Source of the DNA: Mobula hypostoma
Lineage: Eukaryota
DNA length: 64,000 nt
Reading direction: 5' to 3'
Assembly (NCBI RefSeq): GCF_963921235.1
Contig: NC_086108.1
Coordinates: 29,080,001 to 29,144,000, forward strand
Shown: positions 4,782 to 64,000 of the stretch, in pieces
Layout: every line of letters begins with the position of its first letter
Numbering within the stretch: position 1 is the first letter of the stretch
Made by a program: the position numbers and the translations under genes
Notes under the pieces: generated by a model
Database searches by the model: none
Seen by the model: the letters and a program-made list of their open reading frames with translations, nothing else
Told to the model about the DNA's origin: nothing

Positions 4782-6326
4782 ACAGACACCTGTTAGGGTG
4801 CATTCTCCAGTTACCTTAGAAGGTAACTGTAGCCTTCAGCCAGGAGCAGATGTCATCAGGTGCTTCCTAACCTTCATGGAGTGGTGGGCCGGCAGTAGTG
4901 GCCATATCACTGCCTGTCTGCTCCTGGCTTCCAGCTCCCCTCCTCTTGCCTACCCCAAATCCAACAAGAAGCTCATTCTTCCTCTTCCCCCATTCTAAGA
5001 GCTGCTTATTTTTTGCTCCTTTCGTCCAGGCCCAGATCTGACAACAACCGCCATGCTGATTTGGCTGGGAAACCTCTGCAGCCGATCTCCACAGGGAACA
5101 ACCATGCCTGCCATCCCTTGTCTTTACACTCCTGCACTAAGGGCTGCTACTTCAAGGCCTTTCTCTCGTGGGCCTCTTCTCATCCCTCCTACGGCACAGT
5201 CAACTCGACCAGAGTTATTTTCTTGTCTTCCATTGACCACAGTACAATGTCCCGGGCATAGGGTTGTGTGCACCACATCCGGGAACTGCAATCTCCTTCC
5301 CACATCGACCCTAACCTCCCAGGACCTGGCCGCGAGCAGCAGATTGGGTTTTGGTTGTTTGGTTATGAAAGGCCTAGCTCCCTCTTTGATGAAGGTGACG
5401 GCCTTCCTCAAATCTGTGCCAGCCGTCCTCTTCTTGCATCCCTCCCACTCTAGTGTGTCAGCAAGAGGCAGAAGCACCTTAACATGGCGCCACCTATACC
5501 GTCCTTGAGTTAGAGCTGTTTTACACCCAGACAGTACATGAGCCAGTGTCCCCTTTTGACCACAGAGCTTACAGTTCGGGTCCTCTCTCATCCCCCATGT
5601 GTACACATGTAATGGTGAAGGAATGGTGTCATACACAGATCGCAAGAGGAAGGAAATACGGAAGGGCCCCAGTCTCCATAACTCTGCCCATGAGATCTTG
5701 CGCTTAGGCAGATCCCATTTTGTCCAGACACCCTGGGACTCTTGTTCCAGTGCCTTTGACATCTGCTTCTGTTCCTCACGGATCTGTACTTCTGCCTGTA
5801 TTATGTCTCTCCTGTTCCTTATGCTTGCATTTCCCCACTTCTAGAAGTGAACTGAGCTGAGGCCTTGCTGCCCGACACAGGGGTTGCCGATGATATCTCG
5901 CAGCTTCAGAGAACACACTGCTTCCTCCACAGCTGCGCTGGCTGCCCACTTACGCCCAGTTCTGGTTGTAACGCCTGCTTGCTTTACCAAGACGTCATTA
6001 GAATCTCTCAAACTTAATAAAGTTCTGCATTTTGCCACCTTGAATTCCTCCACAACAGATGACAGGGGAAGCTGCAGTTGCCTAGAATGAATATAAAGGC
6101 CCACTGAAGAGAAGCTTGGGGGAACTCCCAACCATCTCCGCAGGTGCTTGTTGGTTTTCCTCTCGATTCCCTCTACAACAGTCATGGGGAACTCATAAAG
6201 TGTGAAGAGCCAGAGAAGCCTGGGCAGAAGGCCGTATTGGTACAGCCAGGTCTTGAATTCACCCGGAAGTCCGGATTTGTCAATCTTCTTCAGCCATTCC
6301 TCTGTCTGCTTCACAGCATTGGTGAC
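4782..6326 (-). mobile_element. 5'-truncated Hero (R2-group) non-LTR retrotransposon: RT C-terminus, CCHC knuckle, restriction-like endonuclease, 3' UTR
   Basis: ORFs 5841-6467 and 5124-5762 include IDKSGLPGEFKTWLYQYGLLPRLLW and CKLCGQKGTLAHVLSGC...GRYRWRH, followed by a frameshifted PD-(D/E)xK-type region. Imperfect AA(C/G)TTGTT duplication at the ends. Confidence 0.85.
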
Positions 6327-6341
6327 AAGTTGTTTCCACTG

Positions 6342-6590
6342 TGATGCACCTTCAATTACTCCAAAAGACTGGAAGTAGGGTAAATACTGAAAGGCTTTTA
6401 TTCGTCGTAAAATGTGACCTCCACGCTGAGTGTCTGCCCCTGGACTGAGGAGGAGGAGCAGTGGCAAAATTGCCTTTATTCAGGGTCTGTGGAAGGAGCC
6501 ACAGGGGCAGTCAGCAGAGGTGCGTGTCCAGACAGGTAACCCAGTTACAACATATATATATATATATGTATATATGTATGGTTTACCACA
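6342..6590 (-). mobile_element. Short solo LTR (249 bp)
   Basis: TG...CA termini, AATAAA on the minus strand, 5-bp TSD CACTG (6337-6341, 6591-6595). Confidence 0.8.
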
Positions 6591-14578: not shown

Positions 14579-16116
14579 CAACACACATAAAAGATGCTGG
14601 TGAACACAGCAGGCCAGGCAACATTTCTAGGAAGAGGTACAGTCGACGTTTCGGGCTGAGACACTTCGTCAGGACTAACTGAAAGAAGAGCTAGTAAGAG
14701 ATTTGAAAGTGGGAGGGGGAGGGGGAGATCTGAAATGATAGGAGAAGTCAGGAGGGGGAGGGATGGAGCCAAGAGCTGGACAGTTGAGTAGCAAAAGGGA
14801 TATGAGAGGACCATGGGACAGGAGGCCTAGGAAGAAGGAAAAAGGGGAGGGGTGGAAAAAGCCCAGAGGATGGGCAAGGGGTATAGTGAGAGGGACAGAG
14901 GGAGAAAAAGGAGAGAGAGAGAAAGAATATGTGTATATAAATAAATAACGGAGAGGGTATGAGTGGGAGGTGGGGCATTAGCGGAAGTCTGAGAAGTCAA
15001 TGTTCATGCCATCAGGTTGGAGGCTACCCAGACGGAATATAAGGTGCTGTTCCTCCAACCTGAGTGTTGCTTCATCTTTACAGTAGAGGAGGCCATGGAT
15101 AGACATATCAGAATGGGAATGGGACGTGGAATTAAAATGTGTGGCCACTGGGAGATCCTGCTTTCTCTGGCGGACAGAGCATAGGTGTTCAGTGAAACGA
15201 TCTCCCAGCCTGCGTCGGGTCTTGCCAATATATAGAAGGTCACATTGGGAGCACCGGATGCAGTATATCACCCCAGCCGACTCACAGGTGAAGTGTCGCC
15301 TCACTTGGAAGGACTGTCTGGGGCCCTGAATGGTGGTGAGGGAGGAAATGTAAGGGCATGTGTAGCACTTGTTCCACTTACAAGGATAAGTGCCAGGAGA
15401 GAGATTGGTGGGGTCGAATGGACAAGGGAGTCGCGTAGGGAGCGATCCCTGCGGAAAGCAGAGAGAGGGGGGGAAGGAAAGATGTGCTTAGTGGTGGGAT
15501 GCCGTTGGAGGTGGCGGAAGTTACGGAGAATTATATGTTGGACCCGGAGGCTGGTGGGGTGGTAGGTGAGGACCGGGGAACCCTATTCCTAGTGGGGTGC
15601 TGGGAGGATGGAGTGAGAGCAGATGTGCGTGAAATGGGGGAGATGTGTTTGAGAGCAGAGTTGATGGTGGAGGAAGGGAAGCCCCTTTCTTTAAGAAAGG
15701 AGGACATCTCCCTCGTCCTGGAATGAAAAGCGTCATCCTGTGAGCAGATGCGGCGGAGACAGAGGAATTGCAAGAAGGGGATGGCATTTTTGCAAGAGAT
15801 AGGGTGAGAAGAGGAATAGTCCAGATAGCAGCAAGAGTCAGTAGGCTTATAGTAGACATCAGTAGATAAGCTGTCTCCAGAGACAGAGACAGAAAGATCT
15901 AGAAAGGGGAGGGAGGTGTCGGAAATGGACCAGGTAAACTTGAGGGCAGGGTGAAAGTTGGAGGCAAAGTTAATAAAGTCAACGAGCTCAGCATGCGTGC
16001 AGGAAGCAGCGCCAATGCAGTCGTCGATATAGAGAAGGAAAAGTGGGGGACAGATACCAGAATAGGTTTGGAACATAGATTGTTCCACAAAGCCAACAAA
16101 AAGGCAGGCATAGCTA
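14579..16116 (-). mobile_element. Penelope-like element (Neptune-type): RT C-terminus, GIY-YIG endonuclease, terminal repeat
   Basis: LYIDDCIGAA and LPFLDL...TDVYYKPTDS (RT); GVIYCIRCSQCDLLYIGKTRRRLGDRFTEH (GIY-YIG). Imperfect 14-bp TSD AACTGAAGTCAATA / CACTGAATTCAATA. Confidence 0.9.
14641..14676 (-). ncRNA. Minimal hammerhead ribozyme motif in the Penelope terminal repeat
   Basis: Reverse complement AGTC-CTGACGA-AGTGTCTCAGCCC-GAAAC-GTC-GACT; stem II is imperfect. Confidence 0.6.
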
Positions 16117-16924
16117 CACTGAATTCAATAGGTCTCTTTGCTATCCAATGCTCCAAAGATGAGTGTAGGGCCAACAGACCTGTTTCAGTGGTGTGCGAAT
16201 TGCTGTGGGTCAAGGTTGTCTGGGAGGCTGGAGCTAATGAGTACCATGACCAGCCTCTCGAAGCATTTTACAATGGTGCACCTTAGACCTACTGGGCAGT
16301 AGTCATTGAGGCATGTCTCCTTGTTCTTCTTAGGTATCACAGTGATAGTGGTCTTCTTAAAGCAGGTGGTTGTCTTAAAACAGATAGTTTTAACTGTTTA
16401 TCTCCAGGAATTTATGCACGTTGTCAACTCTGTTCTCAACCATCTTTCCTCACACACAACCTTCTGATTCAATAAATTCTTCCTCAGCTTGGTCTTAAAT
16501 GGATGCCCTCTTATTCTGAGACCATGCTTTTGTGTTCTGGACACCTAATGCTATCTTTATCACAAAGGTTGGACTGTGGTATTTGATGTCTCCATTAGAT
16601 CTTAGGATGGTTTGCTGTCAATAGTATTGACTAGTATTGAAAAGTCAGTGAAATATCATCTGAGAAACGCCATCATATGCTGATGGACTATGGAGTTGGT
16701 GAGATCTCTGTGCTAATATTGACACAACTGGTAAGTAGTTCCCAGAAACTGACTCTGTTTTGAGATTTCTAAGATCACCGCTTTTCCATATAAGTTTCCA
16801 GAGTCACATTTTTATGAGTTGTAGATTTTTCAGATATCTTATGGACTGTTAATGTTGGTAATAGATTTGTTTATTATTTTATCGCTATATCTTTTTCTAT
16901 TCTATCCTACAAGAGGATACTTCC

Positions 16925-42264: not shown

Positions 42265-42500
42265 AGGTAAGGAGTTTCTCCGGTTAGGGGATGATTTCCC
42301 CCCACACCTCTCTGACGTAGTGGGGAACTGCATACGAGGCAAGTGGTTTGCCATTGCCTTCTGCTGGGTGAGTTTCCAAAGAGATCACCAGCTTGTAACC
42401 CAGCACGGATAGAAAGTGTGCAGGGGAGCTGGCTGGATTTGAACTCGGGGCCTTTCGTCCCGAAGCCCGACGCTGATGCCACTGCGCCACCAGCCTGGTC
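42265..42500 (-). mobile_element. tRNA-derived SINE (236 bp)
   Basis: A box TGGCGCAGTGG, B box GAGTTCAAATCC, CCTTA-like tail, 12-bp TSD TTATTCATTCTA (42253-42264, 42501-42512). Confidence 0.85.
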
Positions 42501-50521: not shown

Positions 50522-51465
50522 TGTCATTGTCCAGTCCGTGAAGTCTGTATTCCGGTTCACGGTCCGGTCCATCGACCCTTGCTCCAGGTTTTCCAGTCTA
50601 CCCTGTTTCTGTTCTTGTTGAGCTCTACTTGAGGCAGCTGATGTTCGTTGGGGCTGGCTGCATAAATACCTTCAGAGACCAGAGAGTGGCTGCTGGATTG
50701 TTCTTGTCCTTACTCCTTGTATCCTTTCCTCTGCCTTCTGTTTCCTTGCCTGAAGCCCTGCCTTGTCTTGCTGGTAACTCTCGCCTCAACTGAAGTTCCC
50801 GTCTTGCCTTGCTTTGCCTGAAGCCTTGCCTTGTCTTGCTGGTAACTCTCGCCTCGTCTCGCCTGCAGTCTTGTCCTGGAGCCACCCTGTACCTAGCTCC
50901 CTTCCTGTCCCTTGCCTCCGCCCGAGTAAGCCAGGCTGTCTTGCTATTACCTATGGTTGGTTCTGTCCCTTCCTGTCCCTTGCCTCCATCGGGTGGAGTA
51001 CCACGGCCTGTCTAGCCTCAAGCCTGAAGACTCCAGCCTCCTGCCCAGCCTCAAGCCTGAAGACTCCAGCCTCCTGCCCAGCCTCAAGCCTGAAGACTCC
51101 AGCCTCCTGCCTAGCCTCAAGCCTGAAGACTCCAGCCTCCTGCCTAGCCTCAAGCCTGAAGACTCCAGCCTCCTGCCTAGCCTCAAGCCTGAAGACTCTA
51201 TCCTCAAGCCTGAAGAATCCAGCCCTGTCCTGCCTGCTTGCCAAGCCTCGTCCTTGCCTAGTTCTGGGGTCCGAGGTACTGGGTCCTTGTCCAGTCTCTG
51301 GCTCAGAGTCCAAGCCCGGGCTCCTAGCTCTCTTGTCCAGTCCTGTTCCGGATTCCCGGTTTTCGTGTCCATGGCCTTGACCTCACCTGCATCCTAGTCT
51401 TGTCCCTAGTACTTCAGTGTCTGTGTCTTGCACTTGGGTCCGTTCCCAGCCACCCTCGTATGACA
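50522..51465 (+). mobile_element. Solo LTR (944 bp) with internal tandem repeats
   Basis: TGTCA...TGACA termini, 5-bp TSD TACTG (50517-50521, 51466-51470). Confidence 0.88.
51012..51225 (+). repeat. 33-bp tandem repeat, about 5 full and 2 partial units
   Basis: Unit GCCTCAAGCCTGAAGACTCCAGCCTCCTGCC(C/T)A; no spacers. Confidence 0.95.
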
Positions 51466-53426: not shown

Positions 53427-54838
53427 ACACACATAAAAATTGCTGGTGAACGCAGCAGGCCAGGAAACATCTATAGGAACACTCACAATGCGCTGGAGGA
53501 ACTCAGCATCAGTTGAAAAGATTAGTCGACATTTCAGGTCGAAACCCTTCGTCAGGACTAACTGAAAGAAGAGATAGTAAAGGATTTGAAAGTTGGTGGG
53601 GGGGAGAACCGAAATGATAGGAGAAGACAGGAGGGGGAGGGATGGAGCTAAGAGCTGGACAGTTGATTAGCAAAAGGGATATGAGAGGATCATGGGATGG
53701 GAAGCCTAGGGAGAAAGAAAGGGGAGGGTGGAAGCCCAGAGGATGGGCAAGGAGTACAGTGAGAGGCACAGAGGGAGAAAAAGGGGGGGGGGGGAGGGAG
53801 AATAAATAAATAAATAAATAAATAAATAACGGGTGGGGTACGAAGGGGAGGTGGGTCATTAACGGAAGTTAGAGAAGTCAATGATCATGCCATCAGGTTG
53901 GAGGCTACCCAGACGGAATATAAGGTGTTGTTCCTCCAACCTGAGTGTGGCTTCATCTTGATAGTAGAGGAGGCCGTGGATAGACATATCAGAATAGGAA
54001 TGGGACGTGGAAGTAAAATGTGTGGCAACTGGGAGATCCTGCTTTCTCTAGTGGACAGAGCATAGGTGTTCAGTGAAACGGTCTCCCAGCCTGCGTCGGG
54101 TCGCGCCAATATATAGAAGGCCGCATCGGGAGCACCGGATGCAGTATATCACCCCAGCCGACTCACTGGTGAAGTGTCGCCTCACCTGGAAGGACTGTCT
54201 GGGGTCCTGAATGATGGTGAGGGAGGAAGTGTAAGGGCATGTGTAGCACTTGTTCTGCTTAAAAGGATAAGTGCTGGCAGGGAGATCGGTGGGAAGGGAT
54301 GGGGGGGACGAATGGACAAGGGAGTCGTGTAGGGAGCGATCCCTGTGGAAAGTAGAAAGAGGGGTAGAGGGAAAGATGTGCTTAGTGGTGGGATCCTGTT
54401 GGAGGTGGCGGAAGTTACAGAGAATAATATGTTGGACCCGGAGGCTGGTGGGGTGGTAGGTGAGGGCAAGAGGAACCTTATTCCTAGTGGGATGGCAGGA
54501 GGATGGGGTGAGAGCAGACATGTGTGAAATGGGAGAGATGTGTGAAATGGGAGAGATGCGTTTGAGAGCAGAGTTGATGGTGGAGGAAGGGAAGCCACTT
54601 TCTTTAAAAAAGGAGGACATCTCCTTCGTCCTGGAATGAAAAACCTCATCCTGAGAGCAGATGCGGCGGAGACGGAGGAATTGCGAGAAGGGGATGGCAT
54701 TTTTGCAAAAGACAGGGTGAGAAGAGGAATAGTCCAGGTAGCTCTGAGAGTCTGTAGGCTTATAGTAGACATCAGTAGATAAGTTGTCTTCAGAGATAGA
54801 GACAGGAAGATCAAGAAAGGGGAGGGAGGTGTTGGAAA
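53427..54838 (-). mobile_element. Neptune-type Penelope element, 5'-truncated, with hammerhead motif (53524-53559)
   Basis: NKCYTCPY linker and GVIYCIRCSRCGLLYIGATRRRLGDRFTEH; homologous to 14579-15925. Confidence 0.9.
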
Positions 54839-54839
54839 T

Positions 54840-55338
54840 AGAAAGGAGAGGAAAGGAAGGACAATCGAAAGAAGAAAACTATGTACAAAGTAGGGAGTGA
54901 TCTTTTTTTACAACATATTCATTGACTTGTGAGAATAAAATCAGGCCTATGACGTGTTACATAGTTAAACCATTTTTCCCAGTATGAATCAAATTGTTCC
55001 AACTTATGATTAACAGATGCTGTTATCTTCTCCGTTTTGTAAATATCCATTATAATTTCCATCCATACATTTAAAGTTGGGCTCTCCTGTGATAACCATT
55101 TCCTGGTAAGGGTCTTTTTACCAGCCACCAACAGTACATTCATTAAATATTTATCTCTTTTCAACCATTCTTGAGGTATATACCCAAAATATATGGTCTT
55201 ACTGTCTAAGAGTATTTCACATTTAAAGATGTCTTGTAGGGCATTATGTATCCCACTCCAATAGTCTTTAATAATGGGACATTCCCAGAAAATATGATAA
55301 TGGTTTACATTTTGATTTCCACAATTTCTCCAGCAAAC
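54840..55338 (-). mobile_element. L1-clade LINE ORF2 C-terminal fragment
   Basis: CWRNCGNQNVNHYHIFWECP knuckle, then LLVAGKKTLTRKWLSQESPTLNVW...EKIT. Confidence 0.8.
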
Positions 55339-59400: not shown

Positions 59401-61638
59401 ATATGTTGTCATTGGAAAGAGTCCAGAGGAGGTTCACAAGGATGATTCCAGGAATGAAAGGGTTAACATATGAGCAACATTTAGCAGCTTTGGGCCTGTA
59501 CTCACTGGAATAGGGTGGATGTGGAGAGGATATTTCCTATAGTGGGGCCTCCAAAGCTAGAGGGCACAGCCTCAAAATTGAGGGCAACCCTTTGGAACAG
59601 AGGTAAAGAGTAATTTTTTTAGCCAGGGAGTAGTAAATCTGTGAAATCCTCTGCCACAGACTGCGGTGTTGGCCAAGTCCAAGTGGAAAATTAAAGCAGA
59701 GGCTGATAGTTTCCTGACCAGTCAGGACATCAAAGGATCTGGTGAGAAGGCAGGGGTTGATTGGGATCCAGGTTCAGCCAGGATGGAATGGCAGAGCAGA
59801 CGTGATTGGCTGAATGGCCTAATTCTGCTCCTATGTCTTATGATCTTATGGTCTAAGGCCTCAGCTACTCCAACATCTTCTTCAGAAAACTCCAGCTTCA
59901 ACAACAAGTAACCATCATATGGGTAGTCATCAGTACTAAAGCCCCAAATTTCTAAGACACTGAATGGCATAAATGCGTTAAATACCTGAATCTCATCATA
60001 AGCTCCAGTGGGCTGTTCATCGTGCCGAAAATGCTTTCTATTGCTTGCATGTAGCCCACAGATATGACCAACAGGTTTTCTGCCTTTAGAGACCTCACCA
60101 CCTCAGCAGCCAGACCTTTTAGATTCTCTACCAGTTGCTGTCTTTTCATATTATCTGAGCACTGCCGCTTATCCAGTTACTGGGATGTCTGCTCCACCCA
60201 GTTCTCATATTCCTCCTCCCCGTTGAGGGTGGACTTGACTCCAGAGAACGTTCTCGGCCTATGATAACTTTGGCTCTCTGATGGACGCTTTGGCATTTAC
60301 CTACCGGTGATGTAATTGCCTAAACCAGCTCAGAATTTCCATCACCTGCTGAAGGATCCATTAGAGCTTTCACATCAGACAACTCCTTTCCCTCACTTCA
60401 CAGAAACAAAAAAAATTCTTTAACGTCTTCACCCTCAGCTACATGCCCCACTTCTCTAAAAGTATGGACTGCCTCCCCAGGTGTCCCTATCCTATAAGGC
60501 AGCACAACTTCAGTTATGTCACTGGTAGTCTGGACTAACACGACATTCTTACCCTCTGAACGGTTAAAACGCCGTTCAACCAGCCGTAACTTTCCCCAAT
60601 ACTTTTATAGAACTCTACACTCCAATTAGTAATTCATCGGGGCTTCAGATAGCCACACCACTCAGAACACAAGCATTATTTATGGGTTATCTCTTAGAAT
60701 CACACAAAACCTTAATCCCCACGGTGTCCATAATAAAGTAACTATTTGCTTTCCCTGACAATTGTTTAAACGCAGGCTTAAACAGTCAAATCATTTCATC
60801 AGTTCTTAACAGCAGTCACACAGCAATCAGAAAATCCAGGATGAGCCCTCACAAACATAGCTCCCTCACCAGGCTTGTATGCAAACTGGGCTCGTTAGCC
60901 AGCTCTGCTAATAGCCACATGACTCAGTGATGAGAAGGCCATCTATCATAAATAATATACGTTATAGGGTTAGTGTGATTTGTGGTTCAACAAAACAGGA
61001 AAGCTGGGATGTTCTGATTAATGGAACCCCGATCTGAGTGAATGCTGTAAGTACTGCCCATCTACAATTATCAGGCGGCAAAAAGAAAAGATCATACACC
61101 ACATACAATGAAAAAGAAAGTGTATTTACAAATTTCAGCTTTTTCAAACAGTAATTAAGAGAAAGAAAGAAAAGACAAAAATAAGGGCTATTACAGTTAA
61201 ACCAATCTAGATGTGCACATGGCATTGAAGCTCAAATTATCCAAAAGGTGGGAATGGCCATTACTTACGGCATTGAATTCTCATCACCAATCACCAGTAG
61301 AGCTTCCCATCTTGGACTCCTTCATCTCGTGAAGTACTTCTTGCAGTTGCATCTTTGTGCCTGATCAAATCCTATGGTTGTCTCTCCCGATCTTCTCTTC
61401 TCTGTTTCTCCTGCGAAAAAGACCACAAGCCCCACCAACTTCCATCACAAATCTCTCACCGCACAGCCCTCTGTAGAACCTTCTTCCATTCCATCATCCT
61501 TGTTTGGCTGACAAAACATTTCTAAGTTGAATATCATAGCCCCTTGTCTTTAGCCAAAAGTAACATTCTCCCAACAGGACGCAGTGCTTTTACAGAAAGC
61601 TACTAAATAAAATACCACACAACATTATCAGTAGAAAT
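56480..61638 (-). mobile_element. Decayed Gypsy LTR retrotransposon: 5' LTR (about 60856-61638), PNMA-like gag, RT and integrase; 3' LTR not seen
   Basis: Degenerate tRNA-Pro PBS (TGAGGGCTCATCCTGGAT) after the LTR; KRQQLVENLKGLAAEVVRSL (gag); LDLKSGYYQIP and VYLDDL (RT); LFGREASLPVDLCFG...KLADRW (integrase). Confidence 0.85.
58990..59833 (+). mobile_element. CR1 3' fragment inserted in the Gypsy element
   Basis: LVRPHLEYCQQFWASYLRKD; TCTTATG tail. Confidence 0.88.
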
Positions 61639-62129
61639 TTTAACTAGGGCACTTCACATGATAGCAAGTAGATAAAGAGATCAGTAAGATACAGCCACTC
61701 AAATAAAAATATTCCAGGTCCGGCCCAATACAAGAAGGCGACACACTGCCCCGGTGGAGCACACTGGTTCCCATGCCTCTCTCCTGGGGCTGTAAGCAGG
61801 TGACACCACAGCTTGAGGCCCACCCAGTCCTTGCACATATAAGTTATTTGATTTGTAGATAAATATTTGAAATATCAACGAATTAAGAGTAATGGGATAA
61901 ATGGGACAGAAGATGAACTGAGACCAGCATAGATCAGCCATGATCACATTGAATGACACGACAGCCTTGAGGAGCCTGAAAGCCAATTCTTTTTTCCCAG
62001 TTTCTTGTGTCTTGTTTATTCTATTTCCTAGTGTCAGTGACTCTATTCAAGCAAAAGTGGTCACCATCTGTATACGAGGTAACCCTTATCTAACGTTGAA
62101 GATGTAATGCAAAGGGCCTTCTCTCAGGC

Positions 62130-62760
62130 ACTTCAGGAGCACTAGAAGGAGGTGATGGGCAGGCAAGGAGAAAAGGAGAGAGAGAGAAACGGGGATGGGG
62201 AATGGTGAAGGAGAGGGTGGGGGGGGGCAGTACTGGAAATTCGAGAAATCGATGTTCATGCCATCAGGTTGGAGGCTACCCAGATGGAATATAAGGTATT
62301 GTTCCTTCAACCTGAGTGTGGTCTCATCAGGATAGTAGAGGAGGCCATAGATAGACATGAGACACACTCAGGTAATGCCCCCCTCTCCTTCATCAGTCCC
62401 CATCCATTTTCCCTCTTTCATCTTATCTCCTTGCCTGCCCATTGCTTCTCTCTGGTGCTTCTCACCCCCTCTCCTTTTCTTTCTTCGATGGCCTTCTGTC
62501 CTCTCCTGTTGGATTCCCCCTCCTCCAGCCCTGTATCTCTTTCACCAATCAACTTCCAAGCTCTTTACTTCACCCATCTCCCCCCTGGATTCTCCTGTAA
62601 CCCTGTGTTTCTCCCTCCCCTCCCCCCACCTTTTAATTCTGCTACTCATCTTTTTTTTCTCCAGTCCTTCTGAAGGGTCTCAGCCTGAAACATCGACTGT
62701 ACTTTTTTCCACAGATGCTGCCGGCCTGCTGAGTTCCTCCAGCATTTTTGTGTGTGTTGC
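62130..62760. mobile_element. Decayed Penelope fragments in inverted arrangement
   Basis: Minus-strand GIY-YIG C-terminus (LGSLQPDGMNIDFSNF), then a plus-strand terminal repeat with a degenerate hammerhead at about 62663-62698. Confidence 0.7.
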
Positions 62761-62848
62761 TTCATCCCTTCAAATCTGTTCCAACTTTCAACTTGATTAT
62801 GGTTGATCTTCTGTCTCAAATCCATCTTCCCCAACCTATACAAATAAT

Positions 62849-62955
62849 GGGGTCCCCACCTGGCACTCAGCTCTCACCTGTGGCTCCCCATAGCTGTGCG
62901 ACAGCGGCCACACCCCGGGCAACGGCTTCGACAAGCCGGCTAAACCAGGTGAGGG
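62849..62955 (+). ncRNA. Candidate HDV-like self-cleaving ribozyme
   Basis: Nested double pseudoknot assigned by eye: P1 GGGGT/ACCCC, P2 CTCTCACCTG/CAGGTGAGGG, P3 TGGC/GCCA, P1.1 CC/GG, P4 CGGCTT/AAGCCG, and GGGCAAC...GGCTAA core. Confidence 0.65.
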
Positions 62956-63323
62956 TAGCCGACGGGTCTCAAACCCTCAGTGAGATAGGGAGTTGTCTAT
63001 CCCAGCATGTGAAGACAGACTCCGGCGGATTGAGCGGATGAGACCAATGGAAGGTCCAACGGTCAAGAAGGTGGTCTCTGTAAGCGTCGTGGAATGTGTA
63101 GAGCAGAACAAGACACAGAAGACGTCCTGGTCATCCACTGCGCCTAGTCCCATCTCCAGCCGTCTCGACTCTGTCTTGCCACTGGACCCAGATGGGAATT
63201 GGGAAGAGAGAGTGAGGCTGACGCTGCGCAACTCTCCCTCACTTAAATCCAAGTCACGCGCTAGTCTCGACACCATCAATAATGGTGTCGAGGTCCTCAT
63301 CGACGTACGATGGACGAACAAGA
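62849..63323 (+). mobile_element. Non-autonomous 475-bp retroelement, probably RTE-derived
   Basis: Perfect 12-bp TSD TATACAAATAAT (62837-62848, 63324-63335). CpG-rich relative to flanks. 3' hairpin TCGACACCAT/ATGGTGTCGA. No tRNA head. Confidence 0.8.
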
Positions 63324-64000
63324 TATACAAATAATATGCAGCCCTTTGAGCAGAAATGCGTGTCATTTTCAAGCGTGAGCTTGCATGGGTGCCTGATGTT
63401 AAATGAGCTGCAGCAACAATATATGGATCTGATTTGACATGCAGCACATTGTAAAAGTTCATCTTGTGTCACTAAAGCTAGTGAAGAAACTGCTGAGTTT
63501 TGTAGGCTTAGGGGCTTCTTTTAGGTGCATTGCATTCTCATGCCGTAGGTTTCAGATGGATTTATTTTTTACTCCCCACTAGATAAGTACCATCCGAAGT
63601 GGTGACGTTCATTTAAATTCCAGCAAAGCATTTACTGACATGTAATTTCCAACCCACATTTGATGAGCTCCAAGTATCATTTCCAAGTAGAAATATTGAA
63701 ATCAGTGTGATTTTGGAAGACTTGATGAGCCCAGCGTGCCTCAGTTCTAGTGGGATGAATCCTGCTTTACTCTATTCCCACCCACACGGTGAACATCAGC
63801 ATCATTTTCTGATTGCAACCTTTTCAAATGTATAATGATAGTCTCATGTTGGGAGATGATTTCTCTTTCATCTGACTGGCAATGTTGCAGAATAGATTAC
63901 CTACTCATGGCAGAATTTACACTGTCTGCATCCTATTTCCACTGCTTAGATACTACAATGGGCAAATAATATTAGGTTTTGGGCCAGATGGCAAGAAAGA

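Follow-up and report, generated by a model that had tools for sequence, protein, structure and literature searches.

This study suggests, with good confidence, that the flagged stretch at positions 62849 to 62955 of the window, by which we mean the whole 64,000-nt stretch of Mobula hypostoma DNA analysed here, belongs to a damaged copy of a short non-autonomous RTE element, whose 5' end it forms, and that in the intact copies of this family a predicted HDV-like ribozyme likely cuts before the first G. The element occupies 475 bp at 62849..63323 on the plus strand and is bracketed by an exact 12-bp target-site duplication (TSD; 62837..62848 and 63324..63335, plus strand), whose left copy lies flush with G62849, the element start given by an initial annotation of this DNA. 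It has no second copy in the window and corresponds to a 561-nt bipartite element that lacks 81 nt near its 5' end. Behind the ribozyme-like part come the remainder of an RTE LINE 5' UTR (62956..63278, plus strand; 93% identity to L264, a copy of the parent LINE) and about 44 nt of the LINE 3' end (63280..63323, plus strand), which match the 3' ends of the LINE copies L264-L266 and, by eye, RTE-1_PSi.

When the first 142 nt of the window copy were searched against the host genome (3.5 Gb), 1129 candidates were obtained; an exact 21-mer from the ribozyme core has 1306 matches in the same genome, and another exact motif finds 1192 matches to older related families. The intact 5' end of the family reads GGGGTGT-AT-GGGGTGT and lies about 81 nt upstream of the window-type start. 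It is reached by 26 of the best 29 other copies, and none of these 29 has GG at the place of 62849-62850; a family start like that of the window copy was not confirmed. In a core-anchored sample, which covers 90 of 100 places among the 21-mer matches listed and is unranked by likeness to the window copy, alignments start at nt 1 in 53 copies, at nt 2-4 in 17, at nt 5-10 in eight and farther in in 12; none of the 90 starts at nt 82-84, the position of the window copy, and 70 begin 78-81 nt more 5' than the window copy. A tail-anchored sample, which partly overlaps these 90, has 18 of 30 copies beginning at nt 1-4. The 69 full-length (561-nt) copies carry a median of 19 differences from the column majority. 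The 5' ends of the family thus converge on the G that opens the P1 strand, the predicted cleavage G, and to that extent the earlier placing of the cleavage site at the first base of the element stands; however, this G lies 81 nt upstream in family coordinates, and G62849 equals it only if the loss in the window copy is an internal deletion. TSD-like repeats of 8-14 bp, a few of them probably chance, were found for 34 near-full-length copies, and family copies carry (CAA)n-type, microsatellite-like tails. A relaxed core pattern gave 23 matches in the host genome, all members of the same family, while sequencing contigs from four runs compared with the copy L002 showed substitutions only, with a CC>AA change in L3 that pointed to the older families. 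Ten pattern matches in viral contigs were inspected by eye and none had the architecture. Some copies (L005, L014, L058, L097 and L100) have partial re-copies of the first 9-nt unit upstream of G1, in some cases with re-copied target sequence, and copies of a second LINE family described below have one or two identical 9-nt units.

The 561-nt element is composed of the 5' 517 nt and the 3' 44 nt of an APE- and RT-encoding LINE of about 4 kb. Three of the 90 core-anchored copies (loci L264-L266) continue beyond nt 517 into LINE sequence, and in all three some 3-3.5 kb with APE/RT homology separates the matches to nt 1-517 and nt 518-561, which, together with the same last 44 nt, indicates that the short element is an internal-deletion derivative of this LINE. 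LINE copies were absent among the 30 tail-anchored copies. By eye, the distal 5' UTR and the tail resemble RTE-1_PSi and RTE-3_AMi in the accessible part of the supplement of Kojima 2018 (PMC5786205), and from this UTR likeness to named RTEs we infer that the partner reverse transcriptase probably belongs to the RTE clade. The parent LINE and the UTR likeness agree with the earlier proposal that the HDV-like fold heads an RTE-clade retroelement. The second LINE family (L120/L123) has the same core and a different tail; Pfam detected RVT_1 in L123 (E 8.5e-25) and no domain in three of four fragments of L123, and the atlas match for the LINE protein bears a generic RT name and nothing finer. A separate observation concerns a composite subfamily of 10 of the 90 copies (L043, L046, L055, L057, L070, L080, L098, L103, L108 and L119) with a junction shared at nt 517, in which the ribozyme-headed RTE 5' part is followed by a tRNA-like SINE of about 120 nt and then by the RTE tail, the reverse of the usual tRNA-head-first order. 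ARAGORN at relaxed score reports a tRNA in two composite copies, and several composite units are apparently flanked by TSDs as a whole. A stand-alone relative of the tRNA-like insert (80% over 98 nt) is found in the window at 42397-42494 on the minus strand, and the adjoining segment at 42289-42393 resembles the distal part of an older RTE-type element.

All the helices drawn by the initial annotation can be read in the window copy: P1 at 62849-62853/62912-62916, P2 at 62871-62880/62946-62955, P3 at 62881-62884/62907-62910, P1.1, and P4 at 62923-62928/62933-62938. In the predicted fold of intact copies, P1.1 and P4 are as drawn there; P1 has 7 bp and pairs family nt 1-7 with 62910-62916 (window coordinates), P2 pairs 62871-62881 with 62944 and 62946-62955 around a one-base bulge, P3 has 3 bp (62882-62884 with 62907-62909), and J4/2 reads G-C62940-U-A-A. 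L3 of the intact copies is 28 nt long and consists of seven HDV-type bases followed by A, a hairpin and G. On the plus strand of the window copy, a remnant of the P1 5' strand with five of its seven nt (62849..62853, most likely family nt 1-5) is followed by the orphaned 3' arm of a further stem, P1.2 (62854..62870, family nt 87-103), and by the P2 5' strand (62871..62881), which forms 10 bp with 62946-62955 and whose T62881 is predicted to pair with A62944 across the bulged C62945 or with A62910. Next come the P3 5' strand (62882..62884), the first seven nt of L3 (62885..62891) with U20, the C21-C22 of P1.1 and A62890 in place of the family G25 (HDV numbering), and the hairpin inserted in L3 (62893..62905, with arms 62893-62897/62901-62905), which is 6 nt shorter than in intact copies. 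The remaining parts are the segment 62907..62918 with the 3' strands of P3 (62907-62909) and P1 (62910-62916) and the P1.1 GG (62917-62918), the P4 hairpin (62923..62938), J4/2 (62939..62943) with the predicted catalytic C62940, and the P2 3' strand (62944..62955).

The first seven L3 bases fit TYYHCGY and J4/2 fits CNRA of a published descriptor (accessible part of the supplement of PMC4870747), and the earlier reading of C62940 as the C75 equivalent holds; P2, P4 and P1.1 had been drawn correctly. Intact copies show the helix order P1, P2, P3, P1.1, P4 as a nested double pseudoknot, in which P2 and P4 covary, and a P1 of 6-7 bp that opens with a purine-pyrimidine pair (G-C, G-U or A-U). The catalytic C is present in 68 of 69 copies, which is close to background conservation, and by eye it also survives in 27 of 30 copies of the older families, for which the search pattern had left this position free; U20 together with G25 is found in 61 of 69, and 19 of the 69 copies with a full 5' end retain every scored pair and core base. 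The 5-bp P1 of the initial annotation fails in the relatives, where 53.8% of its cells are paired versus 100% when a 7-bp P1 is drawn from the true start, and the 5+4 geometry of P1 and P3 is damage in the window copy (the 81-nt loss), not the family layout. Folded alone, nt 11-101 form one long stem, P1.2, at whose base the second repeat pairs with the CACCTGG strand; in folding, nt 1-7 are unpaired with a probability of 0.99 and nt 10-16 with one of 0.15. A forced P1 from nt 1 gave -73.8 versus -61.6 kcal/mol from nt 10, in a comparison that left P2 out and used a program without pseudoknot capability. The second repeat at nt 10 was rejected as the main cleavage site because only 7 of 90 starts fall at nt 7-10 and folding disfavours it. 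Constrained folds of the second-family LINE copies were uninformative because these copies are decayed.

The pairing of these helices at the family level is not chance. A pattern scan of metagenome contigs gave 16 matches, of which 13 have, by eye, the same build and five of these 13 have LINE-protein homology downstream (within 1.5 kb); the other three (L238, L243 and L252), which are GC-rich, akin to each other and carry the core pattern without helices, were dropped as unrelated. For the alignment, 14 relatives were hand-picked for a recognisable 5' start and for spread over families; the rows are related to each other, and in two LINE rows the P1 columns are empty. Paired cells amount to 95.2%, versus 84.5% in shuffles and 42-47% with slid partners. 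As many as 19 of 44 pairs have changed on both sides, which none of 500 shuffles reaches, a count that is not a probability because the 14 rows are related and hand-picked. By helix, such double changes are found at 5/6 pairs of the L3 hairpin, 5/11 of P2, 4/6 of P4, 4/9 of P1.2 and 1/7 of P1, so that P1.2, P2, P4 and the L3 hairpin keep pairing through sequence change. The hairpin that the initial annotation had noticed within the 22-nt L3 of the window copy is real and covaries across these relatives. The invariance of P3, P1.1, G25 and the catalytic C is no evidence, since the search patterns fixed them in all 14 rows. RNAalifold, unprompted, recovered P1.2, P2, P3, the L3 hairpin and P4.

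It is somewhat unlikely that the active fold, although real, is registered differently, with a 6-bp P1, a P3 of 4 or 5 bp (T62881-A62910, U62885-G62906) and the L3 hairpin stacked on P3. RNAalifold favours T62881-A62910 and U62885-G62906 (14 of 14 rows each), and P1 pair 7 is impossible in the second LINE family; however, RNAalifold is unable to draw P1 across P2, the 7+3 register yields the 7-nt L3 motif and the CNRA junction in the register of the published descriptor, and antigenomic HDV is already reported to shift register at the base of P2 (PMC2175327, in part). The 7+3 and 6+4 registers are indistinguishable because the relevant columns never vary, and at the level of function the 6+4 register is compatible with cleavage before the first G by intact copies.

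Compared with the intact copy L063, the window copy has its first 83 nt replaced by GG, carries A instead of G at 62890 and has lost 6 nt of the L3 hairpin. The 81-nt loss is probably an internal deletion that joined nt 1-5 to nt 87 via GGT microhomology, and G62849 may therefore still be the first base of the family. A 5' truncation at nt 84 with addition of two untemplated G is possible, but extra bases at 5' junctions in this family are mostly A/T, unlike the GG of that reading. The window-type start has two exact matches in the host genome, the other being L032, a full-start copy whose internal deletion has brought GGGGT (nt 23-27) up against nt 87, and an event of that sort is the simplest reading for the window copy too; the short-hairpin form matches once, the window copy itself, so the 6-nt deletion is private and a window-type subfamily was rejected. 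The change at 62890 lies at a CpG site, is present in eight of 69 copies and puts A at the conserved G25 position, which the initial annotation overlooked. As far as the accessible texts report, G25A lowers the activity of HDV about 3000-fold (PMC1874588), and a G-to-A change at the G25 equivalent abolished cleavage in a wasp R2 ribozyme (PMC3774820). With P1.2 and two P1 pairs lost and G25 changed to A, the window copy is likely to cleave poorly or not at all, and as a ribozyme it is likely weak or dead. The CACCTGG strand, suggested earlier as an alternative pairing, does lie at 62857-62863, but it is buried in P1.2 of intact copies and freed only in the window copy: its pairing probability with P2 is 0.00 in four of four intact copies and 0.21 in the window copy, versus 0.75 for the native P2 there (nested ensemble). 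The window copy may keep some residual activity, since the native P2 dominates and one wasp R2 ribozyme has a P1 of just 4 nt (PMC3774820, accessible part).

We consider it quite improbable that the window copy itself functions as a short ribozyme variant (5-bp P1, 17-nt J1/2). It has all the helices, P1.1, C62940, the native P2 at 0.75 and a TSD flush with G62849, and other HDV-like ribozymes are described as working with short P1 stems and short J1/2 linkers (PMC3774820, PMC4908430, both in part). However, it has no descendants in 3.5 Gb by the match counts of its start (two) and its L3 deletion (one), it carries A62890 in place of G25, its minimum-energy fold adopts the alternative P2, and an unstructured 17-nt linker would be expected to be slow from what is accessible of PMC4908430. 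Breakpoints in the family also cluster near nt 80-89 (L032, L095, L055, L030 and the window copy), with two internal deletions that end at nt 87, a 5' inversion at that same position and two truncations; they fall in the P1.2 3' arm, which suggests that reverse transcriptase stalls or jumps there.

From the pile-up of 5' ends and the predicted fold we infer that intact copies may cleave themselves. The element would be transcribed by read-through, and the J1/2 of about 90 nt would fold first into the P1.2 stem, hiding the second GGGGTGT repeat and the CACCTGG strand and leaving nt 1-7 free. The double pseudoknot would then form, with the C62940 equivalent as the putative general acid, and the cut would release a unit-length RNA that the LINE protein would copy from the 44-nt tail. 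The L3 hairpin, inserted near HDV position 27 behind the seven loop bases of HDV type, would likely project off the active site. RTE elements are reported to bear active HDV-like ribozymes (PMC7936874, PMC6765202), and P1.2 and the extended P2 are reported to speed cleavage of drz-Agam-2-1 almost 1000-fold (PMC4908430), in the parts of these papers at hand. A subfamily with an A6-C mismatch in P1 (14 of 69 copies, 13 of those with G65) has spread, and the second LINE family has spread with a C7-A mismatch; mismatches at the top of P1 occur in about a quarter of the R2 ribozymes covered by the accessible part of PMC3774820. Of 49 copies, 31 have T directly before G1, versus a 35% background (p = 6e-5), and U at -1 is given as the best base for HDV cleavage (PMC1874588, in part). 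This T could come from target preference, an untemplated cDNA base or a templated U, while tandem-repeat slippage as its whole cause is weak, the excess being mostly a single T. The TSDs of 34 copies have A first in 23, which together with the T before G1 points to a target or junction preference.

An internal RNA polymerase II promoter starting at G1 or one base before, with the fold left as a relic or kept only to protect the RNA or serve translation, would produce a pile-up at G1 just as a ribozyme does and would suit the enriched T at -1, the spread of P1-mismatched subfamilies and the sharing of one stretch by promoter and ribozyme in L1Tc (PMC3383444, accessible part), but it is very unlikely to be what sets the 5' ends, since the 5' end is the P1 strand in several families with diverged J1/2 sequence and the catalytic C is retained in the older-family copies counted by eye above, and the two roles are not mutually exclusive.

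Rfam gave no ribozyme family at E up to 10, either for window positions 60000-64000 or for six loci with intact relatives, so the recommended check with HDV-like models was negative and the expectation that standard descriptors would miss the fold was borne out. The published RNArobo descriptor has an L3 of 7 nt (TYYHCGY) and a J1/2 of up to about 51 nt, both of which the intact copies exceed, and with our re-implementation L063 was missed until both limits were relaxed. These limits are a search convention, not a catalytic requirement. Our own relaxed descriptor, applied to both strands of the window, gave three matches, namely the flagged site and two chance-looking ones.

The ribozyme drz-Agam-2-1 of Anopheles gambiae is linked to RTE elements. 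According to the accessible part of Webb et al. 2016 (PMC4908430), it has in common with the present fold the nested double pseudoknot, a J1/2 structured by P1.2 and short linkers, and its P2 is extended to 11-12 bp, like the long P2 here; that part describes no L3 hairpin. The present fold further differs in that its P1.2 conceals a second version of the P1 strand and that a bulge of one base is predicted in P2. Bipartite non-autonomous RTEs that keep the LINE 5' end are a known class, and some RTEs have ribozymes, for which Kojima 2018 (PMC5786205) cites Ruminski 2011; RTESINE1/2, WALLSI3 and RTE-N2_Lch in that paper likewise consist of the 5' UTR and a short 3' end of an RTE LINE. The accessible part of that paper draws no ribozyme structure, and the three core motifs of the ribozyme predicted here have 0 matches in what is accessible of its supplement (PMC5786205). 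R2 ribozymes and R2 SIDEs (PMC3774820, PMC3414825, accessible parts) also combine a 5' HDV-like ribozyme with a 3' recognition end in short, internally deleted elements. Their 5' junctions vary and carry untemplated bases, and they show P1-top mismatches and duplication of P1 strands. R2 is rDNA-specific with a restriction-like endonuclease, whereas the present family is dispersed with an APE-type partner, and those parts describe no L3 hairpin in R2 ribozymes. The genomic HDV ribozyme shares the U20-C21-C22..G25 start of L3, the P1.1 CC/GG, GCAA before P4 and the G-C-N-A-A junction, but its L3 has 8 nt and its J1/2 a few nt, whereas here L3 has 28 nt and J1/2 about 96 nt.

HDV-like ribozymes at the 5' ends of RTE, R2 and L1Tc are established (PMC6765202, PMC7936874), as are short internally deleted elements headed by ribozymes (PMC3414825), so far as the accessible parts of these papers go; the present family would operate in the manner of these systems. 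For a hairpin inside L3 we found no published description, and Ruminski 2011, Webb 2009 and Webb and Luptak 2011 may show one. It is a tentative proposal, which we think has somewhat less than an even chance, that a widespread animal RTE lineage carries an undescribed subclass of HDV-like ribozymes with a selected hairpin in the catalytic L3 and a P1.2 that chooses which tandem P1 strand is cut, the hairpin serving a function of its own, either in a tertiary contact or in binding the RTE protein. Current descriptors would then overlook such ribozymes by the thousand in each genome. The published descriptor allows L3 exactly 7 nt, and in HDV this loop contributes to the active site, so a covarying L3 hairpin would widen the HDV fold if the family cleaves, and ribozyme counts in animal genomes would then be too low, as the 1306 and 1192 matches of two exact motifs indicate. 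The family also offers a ready test of how 5' ends are set in non-autonomous RTE elements, a question that bears on RTE-based gene-writing templates using RTE UTRs (PMC13708176, in part). As a deletion mutant made by nature, the flagged copy is of little weight in itself but illustrates that one damaged copy can mimic a new geometry.

The window as a whole contains many broken LINE-type ORFs. Fragments of a non-LTR ORF are found at 5124-6479 on the minus strand, with motifs suggestive of HERO or restriction-like-endonuclease elements. Other fragments, at 14978-16124, 54048-54907 and 62041-62780, look Penelope-like (RT plus a GIY-YIG-type motif), and the flank immediately upstream of the flagged element shares repeats with them. 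At 50778-51397 an ORF-spanning tandem repeat with a unit of about 33 nt was recognised by eye from the translation.
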